Shown: positions 14,283 through 35,987 of the stretch, piece by piece | Position numbering within the stretch: the stretch's first letter is position 1 | Layout of the letters: each line of letters opens with the position of its first letter | Source of the DNA: a virus | Taxonomy: Duplodnaviria; Heunggongvirae; Uroviricota; Caudoviricetes | DNA: 43,887 nucleotides | Strand: one strand, 5' to 3' | IMG/VR virus record: IMGVR_UViG_3300032007_000048 | Location: 64,001 to 107,887 of that record | Notes under the pieces: model-generated | Database searches by the model: none | The model's input: only the letters and a program-made list of their open reading frames with translations | What the model was told of the DNA's origin: nothing | Made by a program: the position numbers and the translations under genes

Positions 14283-14947
14283 AAGAGATAATAGTGGGTG
14301 AGAACCTTATAAACCATATTAAAGAATATGATGTGATATTAGTCGGTACATCTATCAAAAATTGTTTTGGTAATGGTTTTCAGTACGATATTGGTTTGAA
14401 TTTTCCTGATGTCCTTAAAGTAAACAGAAAAACAAAATATGATGACCCTAACAAGTTAGGAACATGTGAGGTCGTGACATCATATCAGAAAAAAGGTTTT
14501 CCGTTGTTTGTTATATGTTACATCACAAAAGGTAGATACAGACCTGATATACAACCTGATGCTCTTGATTATAACGCGTTAACAAATTGTTTGGAATTGG
14601 TAAATAAACATTTCAAAGGCAAAAAAATAGGCACGACACTTATAGGTAATTCAAATTATGAGGCAGGTGGTAACGCCAAAAAAATATATGATATAATTGC
14701 GGACACTTGTGATGATGTTGATTTATATATTTACGATTTTGAACAGGAAAATTATAAGGAAAAAATAAGAAACACATTTGTTAATATAGTCAAAGACTAT
14801 AAAACCAATAACATTACACTTGAAGAATATCAGGACAGAATGAAAAAATTTTGTTGGGAAAAATCATTTGGAATATATACACCTATGCCTGATATGTCTT
14901 TGACTGAAATAAGAAATGAAATTAAAAGGTTAAAGTACAATGATTGA
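14276..14947 (+). CDS. Macrodomain-like hypothetical protein
   Basis: YDVILVGTSIKNCFGNGFQ and ALTNCLELVNKHF.GKKIG pattern. Confidence 0.5.
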   Translation: MVKEIIVGENLINHIKEYDVILVGTSIKNCFGNGFQYDIGLNFPDVLKVNRKTKYDDPNKLGTCEVVTSYQKKGFPLFVICYITKGRYRPDIQPDALDYNALTNCLELVNKHFKGKKIGTTLIGNSNYEAGGNAKKIYDIIADTCDDVDLYIYDFEQENYKEKIRNTFVNIVKDYKTNNITLEEYQDRMKKFCWEKSFGIYTPMPDMSLTEIRNEIKRLKYND

Positions 14948-15410
14948 AGCATTTAGTTTTAAAAAGTTCAATAATGAGAAAATAGAAAATATTGAAGACT
15001 ATGTTAAGGACTATTGTTCTAACCATAAAGATATTGACATAATGGTGGGTACTGATTCCCAAAACAAAGGGCAAAAAACATATTATTCTACTGTTATCGC
15101 TTTATATACACCAGGACATGGCGCACATTGTCTTTTCAAAAGATGGAACACGTCAAAGGAAAGGGTAAGAAACACAAGGCTCATGAATGAGGTTGCGGCA
15201 TCAATAGAGACTGCGGAATCAATTAAAGAAAAAACCGGTATTAAACCGAAATATATTGATATTGACATAAATCCAAATCCCAAATTTAAATCCAATGAGG
15301 TCTATTCAGCCGCTAAAGGTTGGATTGAAGGGCTTGGATATGAGGTAAGATTTAAAACATTCGGACCACTTGTGACTACAATGGCAGATTGGATTGTTAA
15401 AGGAAATTAG
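14940..15410 (+). CDS. RNase H-like YkuK/DUF458 family protein
   Basis: IMVGTDSQ, RLMNEV, IDIDIN, ADW motifs. Confidence 0.7.
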   Translation: MIEAFSFKKFNNEKIENIEDYVKDYCSNHKDIDIMVGTDSQNKGQKTYYSTVIALYTPGHGAHCLFKRWNTSKERVRNTRLMNEVAASIETAESIKEKTGIKPKYIDIDINPNPKFKSNEVYSAAKGWIEGLGYEVRFKTFGPLVTTMADWIVKGN

Positions 15411-15412
15411 AG

Positions 15413-15919
15413 ATGTGTAAAAACAAACGAATTTTATTTCTTGATATTGATGGTGTTTTGTCTTCAATACCGTTTTTAATGACAGGCAAAGGTTATGTTG
15501 ACCCTGAAAAATGTAAATTACTTAATGTGCTTAATGATTATAATGTTGAGGTAGTAATATCATCTTCATGGGGTTATGATAACGGAAGAACAGAAAAAAC
15601 ACTAAAGGAATGTGGTCTTGAATTACCGATTATAGGTTATACTGAACATTTTCATGTTGATTGGATGTGTAGGGGTAATGAAATAGAAAAATGGTTAATT
15701 GATAATTTCAAGGGGATAGCAACAAAATACGGTAAAGACCGAAACGGTGTTCCATACTATAAGCATAGGTATCATGAAGACCAAGTTCCATATGAATATG
15801 TGATAGTTGATGATGACACAGACTTTTTGTTAGGCCAAAAAGATAATTTCATACACATTGATGAAAACACGGGAATAACAGAAAAAGACATTGAGAAAAT
15901 AATTGATATACTCAAATGA
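15413..15919 (+). CDS. HAD-superfamily protein (HAD_SAK_2-like)
   Basis: ILFLDIDGVL, VISSSW, RGNEIEKWL, YVIVDDD. Confidence 0.8.
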   Translation: MCKNKRILFLDIDGVLSSIPFLMTGKGYVDPEKCKLLNVLNDYNVEVVISSSWGYDNGRTEKTLKECGLELPIIGYTEHFHVDWMCRGNEIEKWLIDNFKGIATKYGKDRNGVPYYKHRYHEDQVPYEYVIVDDDTDFLLGQKDNFIHIDENTGITEKDIEKIIDILK

Positions 15920-15946
15920 ACCATGTCAATTTGACATGGTTTTTTC
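15919..15946 (+). terminator. Intrinsic terminator
   Basis: AACCATGTCAA-t-TTGACATGGTT followed by T-run. Confidence 0.8.
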
Positions 15947-15973
15947 CATGACTTTTGTTTTTTATATTATTTA

Positions 15974-16110
15974 GGGAATGATATACTTGTTGGCTAACAC
16001 CACTTTATATCTCAGCGATTCACAGGGTTCGTAACCTCTTCCCTCCACGCCATGCAGTCGTTCCCTCGGCTGTCTTTTATTTCTATAAACCTATAAGGTT
16101 TTGTTTTTCT
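15974..16110 (-). ncRNA. Probable omega/reRNA scaffold of the TIR-flanked tnpB
   Basis: GC-rich structured tract at the tnpB 3' end (GACAGCCGAGGGAACGACTGCATGGCGTGGAGGG...), hairpin GATATA/TATATC inside the end; position typical of TnpB guide scaffolds. Confidence 0.6.
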
Positions 16111-17210
16111 AATGCAATCCTTTTTACATTAATAGCCGCATTAACATCCCTGTCATGGTGTTCACCACATACAGGACACGCCCATTGTCTATCAGATAAT
16201 TTTAATTCCCTGTTAACATATCCGCAACAATGACATAATTTACTGCTTGGTTCATACCTACCTATGAACACAATGTTTTTACCGTACCATTCAGATTTAT
16301 ATGTGAGTTGTCTGACAAATTCACCCCAAGCGGCATCACTTATTGCTTTTGCGAGATGATGATTCTGTTCTATTCCTTTTACATTTAAATCTTCAAGACA
16401 AATCGTGTCATGCTTCCTAACTAAATCAGTGGATAATTTGTGAATGAAATCATTACGTTGATTGGTTATGCTCCTATAACACTTTGCGACTTGTAATCTT
16501 GCTTTTTCATGGCGATTTGAACCTTGCTTGGTTCTCGCAAATGTCTTTTGCCAATGAGCAAGCATTTTTTGTGATTTATCAAGGTGTTTTGGGTTGCTAT
16601 ATTTTGTACCATCAGATAAAATGGCATAATCCTTAATTCCAAGGTCAATACCAACAGTGGTTTCTGTTATAATTGTTTTTTTATCATTGTTTGATTGTTG
16701 ATTATCAACAACAACTGATACCCAATAAGTACCACATTTATCCTTTGAAACTGTTACCGTGCCTTGTTTAGATGTATCTTGATTCCATGTACGGTTTTTG
16801 CAAAGTTTAATCCATCCCATTTTTGGAATTTTTACTTTCCAATTTTCAAAATCAAAATGGGCACAGTTAATGAACTTAGCCGATTCTCTTGATTTTTTCT
16901 TGGATTTGAAATTTGGGTAATTTGATTTTTTACGGAAAAACCCAGTAAATGCATTTTCAAGGTTTCTTAGTGATTGTTGTAGTGATTCGTTAGCACATTC
17001 ACAAAGAAATGAGGTTTCGTTTTGTTGTTTTAATACAGTTAATTGTTTTGCTAAATCATTATATGATATGGATTTACCATATTCTTTATATGTTTGTGTT
17101 TTTATTTTAAGCCCCCAATTATAGATATACCTTGCACATCCGAAGAACTTATTTAAAAGTTGTTTTTGTTCTTCTGATGGTAGGATTTTATATTTGTATG
17201 CTTTAATCAT
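16083..17210 (-). CDS. tnpB: RNA-guided endonuclease TnpB
   Basis: N-terminal KAYKYKILP, RuvC VGIDLG / CLEDL / DRDVNAA intact, CxxC...CxxC zinc finger. Confidence 0.92.
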   Translation of the reverse strand: MIKAYKYKILPSEEQKQLLNKFFGCARYIYNWGLKIKTQTYKEYGKSISYNDLAKQLTVLKQQNETSFLCECANESLQQSLRNLENAFTGFFRKKSNYPNFKSKKKSRESAKFINCAHFDFENWKVKIPKMGWIKLCKNRTWNQDTSKQGTVTVSKDKCGTYWVSVVVDNQQSNNDKKTIITETTVGIDLGIKDYAILSDGTKYSNPKHLDKSQKMLAHWQKTFARTKQGSNRHEKARLQVAKCYRSITNQRNDFIHKLSTDLVRKHDTICLEDLNVKGIEQNHHLAKAISDAAWGEFVRQLTYKSEWYGKNIVFIGRYEPSSKLCHCCGYVNRELKLSDRQWACPVCGEHHDRDVNAAINVKRIALEKQNLIGL

Positions 17211-17243
17211 TACATATATAAATAGTTAATAAAAGTGAAAAAG

Positions 17244-17274
17244 TTTGTTTTTATTTAAAAAATTTATATATTTG
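17244..17274 (+). promoter_or_regulatory. Bacteroidota sigma-A-type promoter inside the element, facing outward toward the primase gene
   Basis: TTTG (17244) N19 TATATTTG (17267-17274). Confidence 0.65.
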
Positions 17275-17355
17275 CAGTGGCTGAGTTAAAGGGAACACCT
17301 TAGCCAACATGTATATCGTTCCCATTATTTATTTGTATTTTTGTAAAAAAAAGAT

Positions 17356-18381
17356 ATGTTACCAATAGAAGTCAGGCAGGTGTACAACATATTAGTCTCA
17401 ATATTGGGTGAATCCAAACAAGGTGGATTCAGCACTAATGAGACTCAATATCAGTTTAACTGTCCTTGGGAGACAGTGGAAAACGGCGGCACACCTGACA
17501 TGAAATACAATTTGGAGGTTTCTTTGTCTTTGGGAAAATTTCACACATGGTGTTGTAATCATGGTGGAACGATATCAAGGTTAATCAAGAGATGGGGTAG
17601 CAGTGAAATGTTATCAGACTATTTCTCTGTTATTAAAGACCTTAAAGAAAACAAATATTATGACCTTGATTTGTTCAAAGATAACGAAAATACTTTATTT
17701 GGTACTACAAACAACCTAACATTACCACCAACATATACAAAAATTAATTTAGAGAAATGTAGAAAAAACAAACTAGTTGAATATCTCAAAAAAAGAAACA
17801 TCACGCAAGATATAATTGACTTTTACAACATCGGTTATACCACTTGGGATGAGGAGAAATGGCAAGACAGAGATAGAATAATAATTCCTTCTTATGATTG
17901 TAACGGTGATTTGAATTATTGGGTTGGAAGAGATTTTTCAGGTAATCCCAAAAAAACAAAATACAAAAATTGTGATGTTGACAAGAAAAAAATAATCTTT
18001 CAAGAGGAAAAAATAAAATGGTGTGCGGACATATGGCTTTGTGAAGGTGCGATTGATTGTATTTACGGTAACGGAAACACAGTGTCTTTATTAGGTAAAT
18101 CATTAACCAAAGACAGTGAACTATATAAAAACTTATATAACAAAGCCAACGCGAATGTGATTATTTGTCTTGATGGTGATGTTGATAAGACTGAAATCAA
18201 AAGAATGTATAGTTTACTTAACATAGGAAGATTAAGAAATAAAATTTGGTATGTTGAATTGGGTAGTGACACACTACCTTGGAAAGATTTTGGTGAGGCA
18301 TATGAGCAGGGTGGAAAACAGAATATGATAAAAATTTTTAAAAATAAAAAACAATTCAATGAGATTGAGTTGTTAGTCTAA
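17356..18381 (+). CDS. DNA primase (TOPRIM)
   Basis: QYQFNCP...FHTWCC zinc-site-like N-terminus, RIIIPSY, YWVGR, WLCEGAIDC, CLDGD. Confidence 0.8.
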   Translation: MLPIEVRQVYNILVSILGESKQGGFSTNETQYQFNCPWETVENGGTPDMKYNLEVSLSLGKFHTWCCNHGGTISRLIKRWGSSEMLSDYFSVIKDLKENKYYDLDLFKDNENTLFGTTNNLTLPPTYTKINLEKCRKNKLVEYLKKRNITQDIIDFYNIGYTTWDEEKWQDRDRIIIPSYDCNGDLNYWVGRDFSGNPKKTKYKNCDVDKKKIIFQEEKIKWCADIWLCEGAIDCIYGNGNTVSLLGKSLTKDSELYKNLYNKANANVIICLDGDVDKTEIKRMYSLLNIGRLRNKIWYVELGSDTLPWKDFGEAYEQGGKQNMIKIFKNKKQFNEIELLV

Positions 18382-18387
18382 AAAATA

Positions 18388-18759
18388 ATGTTAAAAACAA
18401 CAAAACCAATGGCATATAAGAAAAAATTAACTGATAATGAGTTTGTGGAACTTGTTATTAACAAAGAACTGGAAATCGCAGGTGCTGATATGAGATATGC
18501 TGATATCATCAAACTGACGAAAGATGAGCAACAGAAAATGCAATGGTGGACTAAATACACTTTCAAGACACTTGAACAGTTTCTTGAATGGAGACAATTT
18601 TTCTACGACCATTTTTATGATTGGCAACCGAAATCAGTAAAGAAAAGCACAATGGAAAGAGAATTTCAATGGTGGAATCTCCAATGGGGTCTCAAGTATG
18701 ACTTCGACTATGAGGAAATCGCAAAACATGATGAACAACAAAAAAAGAAAAAGAAATGA
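18388..18759 (+). CDS. Hypothetical protein
   Basis: 123-aa ORF in a tightly packed + strand run. Confidence 0.65.
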   Translation: MLKTTKPMAYKKKLTDNEFVELVINKELEIAGADMRYADIIKLTKDEQQKMQWWTKYTFKTLEQFLEWRQFFYDHFYDWQPKSVKKSTMEREFQWWNLQWGLKYDFDYEEIAKHDEQQKKKKK

Positions 18760-19604
18760 GTGACATAAAAAAAATAATAGCATGTGCTGATATACACATG
18801 CCAAACCTTCGTGGCATTAAAGAACTGAAAAATATCTTGTCATCATTTATTGAACAGTGTAAAGAGATTGTTAACTCAGAGGAAGACAATGATTGTGTCA
18901 GGATAGTTGTCGCAGGTGACTTGTTCACTAACAAAATTGACTGTTCAAATGAGAGTATAATCGCGACGCATTGGTTCCTTTCGGAATTAGGAAACATCTG
19001 TAAAACAATTGTTATCGCAGGAAATCATGACATGTTAATGAACAATACGGACAGAATTGATTCAATAACACCAGTATTTGAAATCAGTAATATGAAGAAT
19101 GTCGGATACCTTGACAAACATCTCAATTACAAATCAGGATGTTATAGGGATAACAATGTCGTATGGTGTCTTTATTCTTCTTTTGACGGTTTTAACACTC
19201 CTGATATCAAAGCGGCAAAAACAAAATATGGTGAGGACAAAACATATATCGGTTTAATCCATGGTGATGTTAATGGTGCGGTAACCGTAACTAACTATGT
19301 TACAGAGAATGGTATTGACCCTAATGTTTTTGAAAATTGTGATTTTGTTATTGCTGGTCATATTCATAAAAGACAGGAAATCAAGAAAAATGGTGTGAAA
19401 GTGGTTTATTGTTCCTCCATTAATCAAAAAAACTTTGGTGAAAGTATAACCGAACATGGTTTTGTCGTTTGGGACATATCAAATAAAGATGATTACACAT
19501 ATGAATATGTTGATGTGCCTAATCCTGATGGCGGTTATTATAAATTTTCCATAAATAACATTGATGATATTAATAATGATATGGAAGAATTAATCAATTT
19601 ATAA
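18756..19604 (+). CDS. Metallophosphoesterase, SbcD/Mre11/gp47-like nuclease subunit
   Basis: ADIH, AGDLF, GNHD, GHIH motifs. Confidence 0.85.
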   Translation: MSDIKKIIACADIHMPNLRGIKELKNILSSFIEQCKEIVNSEEDNDCVRIVVAGDLFTNKIDCSNESIIATHWFLSELGNICKTIVIAGNHDMLMNNTDRIDSITPVFEISNMKNVGYLDKHLNYKSGCYRDNNVVWCLYSSFDGFNTPDIKAAKTKYGEDKTYIGLIHGDVNGAVTVTNYVTENGIDPNVFENCDFVIAGHIHKRQEIKKNGVKVVYCSSINQKNFGESITEHGFVVWDISNKDDYTYEYVDVPNPDGGYYKFSINNIDDINNDMEELINL

Positions 19605-20639: not shown

Positions 20640-21341
20640 ATGAATTATAAGTTAAATGATTTTGAGAAATTTGCCATTGACAAAGGCGTTAGTACAAGTA
20701 AAACTAATGGATACAACAACATGCTTAAAAACAGAATCATAAGTCCTACAATTATTGAGGAAAGACCACTTAATGTTGCGTCAATGGATGTGTTTTCTGC
20801 CTTGATTAGAGAGAAGATTATTTATCTTTCAGGTGAAATTGATGGTGATACCGCAAGTGTGATTAACGCACAACTTCTTTATCTTAATTCAATTTCAGAT
20901 ATTGATGACACAATTAAAATGTTCATATCAAGTGGTGGTGGTTCGGTTATTGATGGGTTAAGTATCAGAGATACATGTAATTTTGTGTTACCTGATGTTG
21001 CTACTTACTGTATGGGAATGGCCGCATCAATGGCATCAATACTCTTGTCATCAGGTGTGAGAGGTAAAAGATACGCATTACCTAACAGCACAATTATGAT
21101 TCATCAGGTTGCGTCATACAATGGGTATTTGAAAAACGCTGACCTTCAGATTGAGGCAAGAGAATCACAAAAATGGCAAAATATCCTTTACAATATATTG
21201 GCTGAAAATACAGGTAAGACATTTGAGGAAATTGAAAAGGACGCTGATAGAGACCATTGGCTGATGCCTAATGAGGCACTTCCTGGTGTATATGGAACTT
21301 ATGGTCTTATTGATGAAATTATAACAAAGTCAAAAGAATAA
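20640..21341 (+). CDS. clpP: ClpP protease proteolytic subunit
   Basis: MDVFSAL...RIIYL-type start, ISSGGGS, GMAASMA (Ser), IMIHQ (His), DADRDHW. Confidence 0.92.
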   Translation: MNYKLNDFEKFAIDKGVSTSKTNGYNNMLKNRIISPTIIEERPLNVASMDVFSALIREKIIYLSGEIDGDTASVINAQLLYLNSISDIDDTIKMFISSGGGSVIDGLSIRDTCNFVLPDVATYCMGMAASMASILLSSGVRGKRYALPNSTIMIHQVASYNGYLKNADLQIEARESQKWQNILYNILAENTGKTFEEIEKDADRDHWLMPNEALPGVYGTYGLIDEIITKSKE

Positions 21342-21344
21342 ACA

Positions 21345-22904
21345 ATGAGTGTTAACATTATTGTTGCCGTGGGAAACTATGTACCAAATCATGGTTTCCC
21401 TATTGGTATAAAAGGAAATATGCCTTGGCATAATAAGGCGGATTTAAAATGGTTTAAAGACACAACAACAGGACACCCTGTTATTATGGGTAGAAAAACA
21501 TTTGAAGCGATTGGTCATCCACTTCCAAACAGAATGAATATTGTTGTTACTTCAAGAACTCACATATGGCAAGATAATACCGATACCAATATTAGAATAT
21601 GTGATAAACTTGAAGAGGCAATAAAATTTGCCAAGACGATTGATGAAGAAATTTTCATTATTGGTGGCGCAAGTATATATGACTATGCTTTATCACAAAA
21701 TCTTGTTGATAAGGTTTTAATTGATATGCTTGCGGTTGATGTACCTGATGCTGACACATTTTTTCCTGATATTGTCACCAACAATGAATGGGAGGAAGTA
21801 GGAAGACCAACAGAAATAGAAAACAGAAAAGCATACGCCATGACTTATGTTAAATGTAAAGGTCTCAATAATCATGTTGATGAACAATATCTTGATTTGG
21901 TTAATGATATTATTGAACACGGTGAAACCAAAGATACAAGAGCCGGTAAAACAAGGTCTTTGTTCGGTAAACAGTTAAGGTTTAACCTTAAAGAAGGTTT
22001 ACCCATCCTCACCACCAAAAAGGTTTATACAAAAGGAGTTATTCATGAGCTTCTTTGGTTTCTTAAAGGCGACACCAATATAAAATATTTGGTTGAAAAC
22101 AATGTTCATATTTGGGATGATGATGCTTATAGGTATTACCTTGAAGTGGTTAAAAGATGTAAAGGTGTTGAAGGGTATGAAAAAGCCTACAGTAAAGAAA
22201 TTTTCCTAAAATTTGTCAGACTAGGAAGTTTTGGTGAACATTTGTACAATAACGACAAGTCAGTGTATCATTATGGAGACCTTGGACCTGTCTATGGAAA
22301 ACAATGGACAAATTGGGACGGTATAAATCAAATTAAGGAAGTTATAGAAAAACTTAAAACTAATCCTGATGATAGAAGATTGATTGTCTCTGCTTGGAAT
22401 GTTGGTAAACTTCATGATATGGCATTACCACCTTGTCATTATTGCTGTCAATTCTATACAAAAGAAATGACATTGGAAGAAAGACTTAAATATTATGAGG
22501 ATAATGTCGGTATAAGGATGCACGAAAATAATTATGAACTCCTTGACGAATGGGATATTCCAAGAAGAAAATTAAGTTGTATGTGGAATCAGCGCAGCGT
22601 GGATTGTGGTTTAGGTTGGTGCTTCAACGCACTTTCATACTCAATCCTAACACATATGATAGCACAATGTGCTAATATGGATGTTGATGAACTTATATTT
22701 TCAGGTGGTGATGTACATGTTTATGAAAATCATATAGAACCTTTAAAAGAACAATTATCAAGAAACCCACATATGTATGCTTTACCAACACTTAAATTAA
22801 ACCCAAACATAACTAAAATAGAAGATTTCACTTACGAAGACATAAAAATTGAAGGATATAGGTCATATCCAGCAATCAAAATGCCTCTTAGTGTTGGATT
22901 GTGA
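21345..22904 (+). CDS. thyA: Bifunctional dihydrofolate reductase-thymidylate synthase
   Basis: N-terminal DHFR (MPWH...DLKWFK, VIMGRKTFE, IIGGASIY); C-terminal TS (LPILTTKK, GPVYGKQW, ALPPCH, QRSVD, GDVHVY). Confidence 0.95.
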   Translation: MSVNIIVAVGNYVPNHGFPIGIKGNMPWHNKADLKWFKDTTTGHPVIMGRKTFEAIGHPLPNRMNIVVTSRTHIWQDNTDTNIRICDKLEEAIKFAKTIDEEIFIIGGASIYDYALSQNLVDKVLIDMLAVDVPDADTFFPDIVTNNEWEEVGRPTEIENRKAYAMTYVKCKGLNNHVDEQYLDLVNDIIEHGETKDTRAGKTRSLFGKQLRFNLKEGLPILTTKKVYTKGVIHELLWFLKGDTNIKYLVENNVHIWDDDAYRYYLEVVKRCKGVEGYEKAYSKEIFLKFVRLGSFGEHLYNNDKSVYHYGDLGPVYGKQWTNWDGINQIKEVIEKLKTNPDDRRLIVSAWNVGKLHDMALPPCHYCCQFYTKEMTLEERLKYYEDNVGIRMHENNYELLDEWDIPRRKLSCMWNQRSVDCGLGWCFNALSYSILTHMIAQCANMDVDELIFSGGDVHVYENHIEPLKEQLSRNPHMYALPTLKLNPNITKIEDFTYEDIKIEGYRSYPAIKMPLSVGL

Positions 22905-35793: not shown

Positions 35794-35942
35794 AAGAATA
35801 ATAGGAAGCCGTACTTCCGAATTTACGCTTGTGGACTATCCAACTATGGATGACAGACTCAGCAATGAGGCACTAAAAAGTAGTGATAGGTTGAAGCAAG
35901 AAATTGAAACTTATAGGTTTTTATAAGTTTCTTTATACGGTG
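35794..35942 (+). ncRNA. Orphan copy of the TnpB guide-RNA (omega/reRNA) scaffold
   Basis: 35794-35904 aligns without gaps to 38546-38656 (97/111 identical by hand); both are followed by a hairpin and TATACGGTG; no tnpB ORF here. Confidence 0.82.
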
Positions 35943-35987
35943 GTTATGGTTTTTCGCCATGGTTTTCCTTATAAATCATGGCTTCAT

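Follow-up and report, generated by a model that had tools for sequence, protein, structure and literature searches.

A probable IS1595-derived tnpB cassette in a large cattle-gut phage, with an omegaRNA scaffold predicted to end at the transposon tip

Introduction

How does a gene for a TnpB nuclease come to lie between terminal inverted repeats (TIRs) and a duplicated target, and where would its guide RNA end in such a setting? In the published view, prokaryotic TnpB proteins occur almost only with the scarless transposases of IS605 and IS607 elements. The question is raised by a stretch of 43,887 nucleotides, here called the window, within a 108-kb IMG/VR record that CheckV estimates to be 30% of a large phage; the phage is present in cattle-gut metagenomes from ten studies. 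A first-pass annotation, made from the sequence of the window, proposed that tnpB had been captured here by a non-autonomous element of the DDE type and that the guide scaffold ends inside one of the inverted repeats.

That annotation also took the arrangement to be unheard of, which was too strong a premise, because DDE-associated TnpBs with inverted ends have been published (PMC10691335). Six such branches (DDE-1 to DDE-6), with inverted terminal repeats and with IS630 named, were described by Altae-Tran et al. (2023, PNAS; PMC10691335), who also reported solo TnpBs with ends matching those of transposase-bearing copies and mobilised in trans (PMC10691335). A 2026 review names ISL2, IS630, and IS1031 as DDE partners of TnpB (PMC13565253). 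The main texts of PMC10691335, PMC13565253, and PMC10711439 make no mention of IS1595, and the papers found to contain both IS1595 and TnpB draw no link between them.

The element in the window

The element occupies positions 15974–17323 (1350 bp). It has the terminator hairpin (15919–15941) that follows a HAD-domain gene on one side and the promoter region of a primase-like gene on the other; its features are collected in Table 1. The two arms of the TIR are 24 nt each and complementary at 22 of 24 positions (92%), and ATTATTTA abuts both of them on the outside. A search of the 43.9-kb window with the 24-nt end pattern, allowing up to three mismatches, returned exactly these two matches, against 0.00 expected from 100 shuffles. 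The length, the repeats, and the perfect duplication given in the first-pass annotation were thus all found again.

The sole long ORF within the element is tnpB, whose product contains the Pfam domains HTH_OrfB_IS605, OrfB_IS605, and Cas12f1-like_TNB and matches the NCBIfam models IS200_TnpB, guided_TnpB, and IS607_TnpB with 410, 333, and 230 bits, respectively. The RuvC residues D189, E273, and D355 and the four zinc-finger cysteines (C4) are invariant among eight relatives, and the protein is accordingly predicted to be catalytically intact, as had been supposed. The ORF list contains neither a transposase nor any second ORF inside the 1350 bp, in agreement with the earlier description of an element that lacks a transposase, and neither a Y1_Tnp domain nor an IS1595 DDE domain was found in the 108-kb record, which represents about 30% of the phage. 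In a sequence comparison, the left-end interior (17211–17299) had an additional imperfect inverted similarity to the 3' part of the omegaRNA scaffold.

Table 1. Features of the tnpB cassette in the window, and elements with the same ends in related phages
Feature	Position	Strand	Remarks
Predicted guide part of omegaRNA	15954-15973	(-)	Right-end flank: target-site duplication copy 15966-15973 and bases beyond; position deduced from scaffold end at 15974
Target-site duplication copy 1, ATTATTTA	15966-15973		Single copy kept in empty allele
TIR, tnpB-distal (right end in tnpB orientation)	15974-15997	(+)	Doubles as predicted omegaRNA scaffold 3' end
OmegaRNA scaffold (predicted)	15974-16094	(-)	Covariance model R1 match at 15966-16094 (-), 57 bits
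Hairpin 1 of omegaRNA	16054-16073	(-)	Apical loop GGGAA, 16061-16065, pairs with UUCCC, 15974-15978
tnpB, 375 aa	16083-17210	(-)	Predicted intact RuvC D-E-D and C4 zinc finger; Pfam, NCBIfam, relatives
Left-end interior, 5' of tnpB	17211-17299	(-)	Presumed tnpB promoter
TIR, tnpB-proximal (left end)	17300-17323	(-)	22/24 match to other arm
Target-site duplication copy 2, ATTATTTA	17324-17331		Abuts left TIR
Candidate TAM, AAAT	17331-17334	(-), tnpB strand	AAA outside duplication, and its first base T
Same-end elements in related phages	L008:6021-7048; L010:585-1486; L018:6203-8044; L030:4535-4699; L032:4060-5806; L033:2702-5491		8-bp duplications, swappable cargo

Empty and occupied sites

Contigs of four public runs were aligned to positions 14300–19000 of the window. 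In two cattle-gut samples from another study (X5 and X6), contigs join position 15965 directly to 17324, skipping 1358 bp; eight letters are common to both sides of the joint, and the flanks are identical to those of the window. The skipped length is that of the element plus one copy of ATTATTTA, so the joint represents an empty allele with a single ATTATTTA. An 8-bp repeat would be too short to create such a joint in a 31-mer assembly. According to the first-pass annotation, the capture would be contradicted by relatives that lack tnpB and keep both repeats, or by an empty site that does not reduce to one copy of the target. The allele that it proposed to look for is present in both samples, with one ATTATTTA and with both repeats gone.

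Depth in the same two samples was about 3.8 over the flanks and the joint and 10–50 over the element (3–10 times that of the flanks), and loose ends run from the TIRs into other flanks; an element about 99% identical is therefore also present at other sites in these communities. The occupied allele was found in a third study (X3), in one 16-kb contig. This copy has 4 nt missing at 15967–15970, in the right-end copy of the duplication and within the predicted guide. Contigs of a metatranscriptome (X8) cover parts of the element; they give neither strand nor ends and may be DNA. A second joint in X5 and X6, from 16078 to 17236, skips 1157 bp, very nearly the extent of the tnpB ORF, with ten letters between the two sides. 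It could be taken as a tnpB-less derivative consisting of ends and omegaRNA only, but with only 22 letters on one of its sides the joint is unreliable, and this reading was set aside.

Elements that share the ends

In IMG/VR, 29 loci contain the outermost 18 nt of the ends (GGGAAYGATATACWTGTT), many of them in contigs of about 400 kb. At eight of these loci inverted pairs lie 165–2790 bp apart, and seven of the eight pairs are flanked by perfect 8-bp duplications. One such element (L017), the ends of which are identical to the left end in the window over its outermost 18 nt, carries a 315-aa transposase of the IS1595 family (PF12762, 3e-44, with a zinc ribbon; NF033547, 211 bits) and is flanked by the duplication AATAATAA. 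Other cargo within GGGAAYGATATACWTGTT ends includes an Lcl_C-like protein, BspA-type LRR proteins, a protein with Big_2 and LRR domains, and unknown ORFs, and one copy with the same ends is a cargo-free MITE of 165 bp. In MAGs of Bacteroidales and Prevotella, the same ends enclose IS1595 transposases in autonomous elements (L237, L206, and L198), with the duplication AATATTTT in L237. A scan of bacterial contigs with the 18-nt end gave 105 loci, where about 70 were expected by chance according to our own arithmetic, and one block of them was a coding sequence that is conserved; loci were kept only if they had extended ends, a paired end, or a transposase.

These comparisons support the placement of the element as a non-autonomous member of an IS1595 lineage common to gut Bacteroidales and their phages. 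Having no DDE transposase of its own, it is filed as a non-autonomous IS1595 derivative rather than as an IS proper. The proposed capture of TnpB by a DDE-type element is borne out, in that the same ends and 8-bp duplications hold an IS1595 transposase (L017, L237), other cargo, or, in the MITE, no cargo at all; the linked transposase that the first-pass annotation suggested searching for was found both in a phage (L017) and in Bacteroidales genomes (L237 and L206).

The TnpB lineage

The TnpB of the window has 329 relatives in IMG/VR and at least 575 further matches in the JGI metagenome collection, while no relative above 45% identity was found in cultured phages. Nearly all relatives at 49–90% identity have inverted repeats of the GG[G/T][A/G]AYNATATAC type. 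The locus L246 has a 90%-identical TnpB and the window's end type at a different site, with the duplication TTAATAGT. It is one of 11 copies, among 42 unique tnpB-bearing ones, with a duplication that matches at seven or more of eight bases, compared with seven of eight non-tnpB pairs that have 8-bp duplications. The smaller share among tnpB-bearing copies may be due to older insertions, recombination between copies, or errors in calling the left end. Among the loci compared (L061–L140 and L246–L285), L119 and L121 have the right flank in common and a left junction that differs by 4 nt.

The relatives at 45–47% identity are without these ends and belong to classical IS605 elements with a divergent Y1 TnpA. 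The R1 covariance model, although built from the clade with inverted repeats, still matches the omegaRNA of two of these IS605 relatives (L308 and L296). The distribution fits a scenario in which an IS1595 element would have captured a tnpB-omegaRNA module of the IS605 type.

The omegaRNA and the start of the guide

The region 3' of tnpB was aligned over 40 distinct relatives. The aligned omegaRNA consists of hairpin 1, a long-range stem, hairpin 2, and hairpin 3, the 3' arm of which falls within the right TIR. The five terminal bases of the element are complementary to the apical loop of hairpin 1, and a change in one is matched by a change in the other: the pairing is GGGAA/UUCCC in the window and GGUAA/UUACC, GGUGA/UCACC, GGAAA/UUUCC, or GGUAG/UUACC in other copies. 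In this helix (helix 2, the pseudoknot) 98.5% of the pairs are formed, and two of the five pairs are changed on both sides. The counts at the varying pairs are UA 33, GC 6, and AU 1 at one and GC 20, AU 17, and GU 2 at the other; the sequences are related, so the independent changes are fewer than these cell counts suggest. In control versions slid by 1–3 columns, 23–44% were paired over the whole structure. At 22 loci, loop and right end both read GGTGA and the left end reads GGTAA. The loop thus tracks the right end and not the left, which places the constraint on the RNA and not on the TIR as a transposase site. A search of 15800–17500 against Rfam returned no family. Folded as a single sequence, the 3' region scored no better than its shuffled versions (z −0.9), so covariation was used instead.

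A pseudoknot of this kind is known from ISDra2, where positions −6 to −2, beside the guide, pair with a loop about 100 nt upstream (PMC10097598), and an IS607 TnpB likewise depends on this interaction (PMC10711439). The omegaRNA was compared with those of ISDra2 (PMC10097598) and ISXfa1 (PMC10711439). Homology to the ISDra2 pseudoknot, together with the covariation, supports a scaffold that would run to the tip of the TIR and a guide that would lie in the flanking DNA. Conservation in the IS605 outgroup ends 2 nt past the pseudoknot strand. The earlier claim of a scaffold ending in the TIR is therefore upheld, since the hairpin-1 loop covaries with the final 5 nt at the right end, in the manner of the guide-adjacent pseudoknot of ISDra2. 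The companion claim, that the guide starts with the duplicated target, is supported as well, with one reservation: the guide is predicted to lie in the flank and the duplication, and the first base of the duplication, T at 15973, may still belong to the scaffold.

Sequences flanking the insertions

Flank sites were read in tnpB orientation and reduced to unique ones, 42 on the left and 60 on the right. On the left, A is found at −11 in 27, at −10 in 30, and at −9 in 35 of the 42 sites, and T at −8 in 35; the full AAAT is present at 16 of the 42 sites only. On the right, the first base (+1) is T at 55 of the 60 sites, and a mirror-image TTT at +9 to +11 is absent (25, 18, and 23 of 60). In the non-tnpB ends of the same family, A at −9 is shared (21 of 28), while A at −11 (8 of 28), A at −10 (9 of 28), and T at −8 (13 of 28) are less frequent, with Fisher p values of approximately 0.003–0.004 for each of these three positions. 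Because A at −9 is common to elements without tnpB, part of the motif reflects the target preference of the transposase itself.

The site in the window, ACAAA and then TAAATAAT, fits the motif. In the empty site, AAAT stands directly 5' of the sequence that would match the guide, which is consistent with its being the TAM, as this is where a TAM must lie. The oriented motif is a hint that TnpB may carry out RNA-guided, TAM-dependent DNA cleavage. The conserved T may be the last base of the TAM, the first base of the guide, or the last base of the scaffold. For the last of these there are precedents: the IS605 outgroup keeps one or two bases after the pseudoknot strand, ISDra2 keeps one or two scaffold bases past it (PMC10097598), and IS607 elements take up one right-flanking base (PMC10711439).

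The surroundings of the left end are themselves recurrent. The same 11–14 nt beside it (17324–17334; ATTATTTATTT on the plus strand) are found in three different contexts, namely the window, a 351-kb contig that encodes a TnpB of 55% identity (L072), and another site of a near-identical element in X6; either a preferred target or a phage promoter motif that has been conserved could account for this recurrence. A TTTGTATTTTTGTAA-type motif at 17335–17352 is conserved 5' of the primase-like gene in related phages (L054, L056, L059, and L060) and is probably a phage promoter. The element is inserted just upstream of this motif, and with one duplication copy the spacing is that of L060. In related phages found through the primase-like neighbour, the adjacency of the HAD-domain and primase-like genes is not kept, so these phages provide no true empty site.

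How the element may spread

The element is mobile by a process that depends on the TIRs and makes target duplications, its relatives have an IS1595 partner, and an omegaRNA has been maintained whose scaffold is predicted to reach the tip of the right TIR. We consider it likely, with good though not complete confidence, that the locus is a non-autonomous IS1595 tnpB cassette whose omegaRNA spans the TIR, whose guide is taken from the flank, and which would also spread by homing. An IS1595 DDE transposase, supplied in trans by host-borne or phage-borne copies, would bind the TIRs of about 24 bp, insert the element into AT-rich DNA, and duplicate 8 bp. The omegaRNA would be transcribed from the 3' part of tnpB onwards, across the entire right TIR; the last five bases of its scaffold would form the guide-adjacent pseudoknot with the hairpin-1 loop, and the guide would start in the duplicated target. 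In phage genomes that co-infect or replicate, the TnpB-omegaRNA complex could then recognise and cut the empty allele, which offers AAAT, a single copy of the target, and the far flank. With an occupied genome as the repair template, the element would be copied in. The occupied allele would be spared, as the TIR splits the motif from the target and AAAT is followed there by only seven matching bases before the left TIR. Such copying is termed non-restorative homing in a review that covers homing for plasmids and phages (PMC13565253). We infer that the element homes into empty alleles in this manner, and homing would suit phages, which replicate and recombine during co-infection. Since excision by a DDE transposase leaves a break in any case, the benefit of TnpB is less obvious than in IS605 elements (PMC13565253).

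A broader version of this reading, which we hold only tentatively and at somewhat less than even confidence, would make the whole TnpB lineage (49–90% identity, with copies in the hundreds among phages of the gut and rumen) a homing module of IS1595 transposons. The right TIR would be dual-coded, as transposase site and as pseudoknot strand, the 8-bp duplication would be the seed of the guide, and only insertions next to AAAT would home. A restriction of homing to such insertions would explain the oriented flank motif.

It is also conceivable that the locus is an ordinary IS200/IS605 element of the IS1341 type, with tnpB only, moved by a Y1 TnpA, and that the TIRs and the duplication are coincidental. 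The best NCBIfam match, IS200_TnpB at 410 bits, and the homology of the omegaRNA to that of IS605 relatives (the R1 matches to L308 and L296) are what such an element would have. Coincidence is nevertheless hard to reconcile with a TIR pattern expected 0.00 times in shuffles, with eleven independent 8-bp duplications, with an exact empty site, with the same ends around an IS1595 transposase, and with a 108-kb record that has no Y1_Tnp. The empty allele and the family of same-end elements refute this explanation, whose residual probability is negligible. Somewhat less improbable, though still very unlikely, is a scaffold that stops before the TIR, in which case the guide would be the fixed repeat and TnpB would target the transposon ends of the family and not the flank. 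Close relatives differ in a short stretch that separates the conserved scaffold from the repeat, and in L047, which has a TnpB of 70% identity, the GTATATCATTCCC end is missing and the similarity to the window ends after ...AGATAGTAAATC, both of which would suit a guide that begins at the repeat. The variable stretch, however, makes up the 5' arm and the loop of helix 5, a hairpin that covaries with the inner repeat; the hairpin-1 loop covaries with the five terminal bases of the repeat, at the right end only; and conservation in the IS605 outgroup likewise ends 2 nt past the pseudoknot strand.

The alternative that deserves most weight, although it too is improbable, is that TnpB is a passenger without a role in the spread of the element, be it a tool of the phage against competitors or neutral cargo, as the LRR genes are in sister elements, and that the flank motif stems from the transposase or from the local phage promoter context. 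Unrelated cargo is found within the same ends, A at −9 is common to all ends of the family, and the insertion in the window lies in a conserved promoter region 5' of the primase-like gene, as a passenger would allow. Against this stand four flank bases (A at −11, A at −10, T at −8, and T at +1) that are specific to tnpB copies and fixed to tnpB orientation, the absence of the mirror TTT at +9 to +11, and the persistence of the association over TnpBs of 49–90% identity with a maintained omegaRNA.

Relation to known systems

Like the members of the DDE-1 to DDE-6 branches, the element has tnpB within symmetrical TIRs, the 3' end of tnpB less than 250 bp from the transposon end, and solo copies with ends like those of transposase-bearing ones; it differs from them in its partner, IS1595, and in its host, a large Bacteroidales phage. 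With IS200/IS605 elements of the ISDra2 type it shares the TnpB family, an omegaRNA with a guide-adjacent pseudoknot, and relatives at 45–47% identity, whereas it has no Y1 transposase and, instead of asymmetric hairpin ends, TIRs and a target duplication.

Members of the IS1595 family that carry passenger genes are on record in ISfinder, among them elements with ISNwi1-like ends ('ggnnatTAT') and 8-bp duplications. The family likeness extends to ends beginning with GG, 8-bp duplications, passenger genes, MITEs, and, in relatives of the element, a transposase that matches NF033547 and PF12762; the copy in the window differs in being without a transposase. To our knowledge, no described IS1595 member carries tnpB.

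Fanzor1 and Fanzor2* elements were reportedly described from eukaryotes and their viruses by Bao and Jurka in 2013. As in the phage element, a TnpB-family nuclease is there the cargo of cut-and-paste transposons with TIRs and duplications, the TIR contributes to the scaffold of the guide RNA, and this RNA extends past the transposon end. Fanzor1 has lost the pseudoknot, whereas the phage TnpB lineage keeps it. Inverted repeats and duplications are built into the guide scaffold of Fanzor elements in eukaryotes and their viruses (Yoon et al., 2023, NAR; PMC10711439). The Fanzor duplications, which are short and mostly invariant, have become part of the scaffold, while the duplication described here is 8 bp long and variable; at most its first T could therefore be scaffold, and the rest would have to be guide.

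The general arrangement of TnpB with a DDE transposase having been published, what is added here is a natural empty allele, the covariation of a pseudoknot between loop and transposon end, an AAAT flank logo, and a phage family of elements that swap cargo. The locus is a natural case, with empty and filled alleles, of a TnpB alongside a DDE transposase that makes variable target duplications. Its lineage points to a guide RNA refitted to a foreign transposon end, with the pseudoknot strand as the tip of the TIR. The empty allele gives a testable pair of TAM and target, and it bears on the role of OMEGA nucleases as homing endonucleases among phages. As a compact nuclease of 375 aa with a defined scaffold, the protein is an ordinary candidate for characterisation.

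Other TnpB-related sequences of the phage

An omegaRNA-like orphan scaffold at 35794–35965, in a tRNA array, is dissimilar to the scaffold of the element and has no match to the R1 model; it is that of another TnpB type. The phage also has a second tnpB outside the window (G000:C1, approximately 20900–22413; L002:1220–2764), which has 68% nucleotide identity and shares the right end. The stretch from its left end to the gene holds a conserved structured leader, to which the R1 model gives weak matches only (19 and 18 bits), and a 36-nt repeat in two to three copies, with about 30 nt of spacer. In this mini-array the spacers differ among L002, L052 (1581–1900), and L053 (11930–12210). The left inverted repeat is intact in L052, and the mini-array of 36-nt repeats therefore lies within the transposon.
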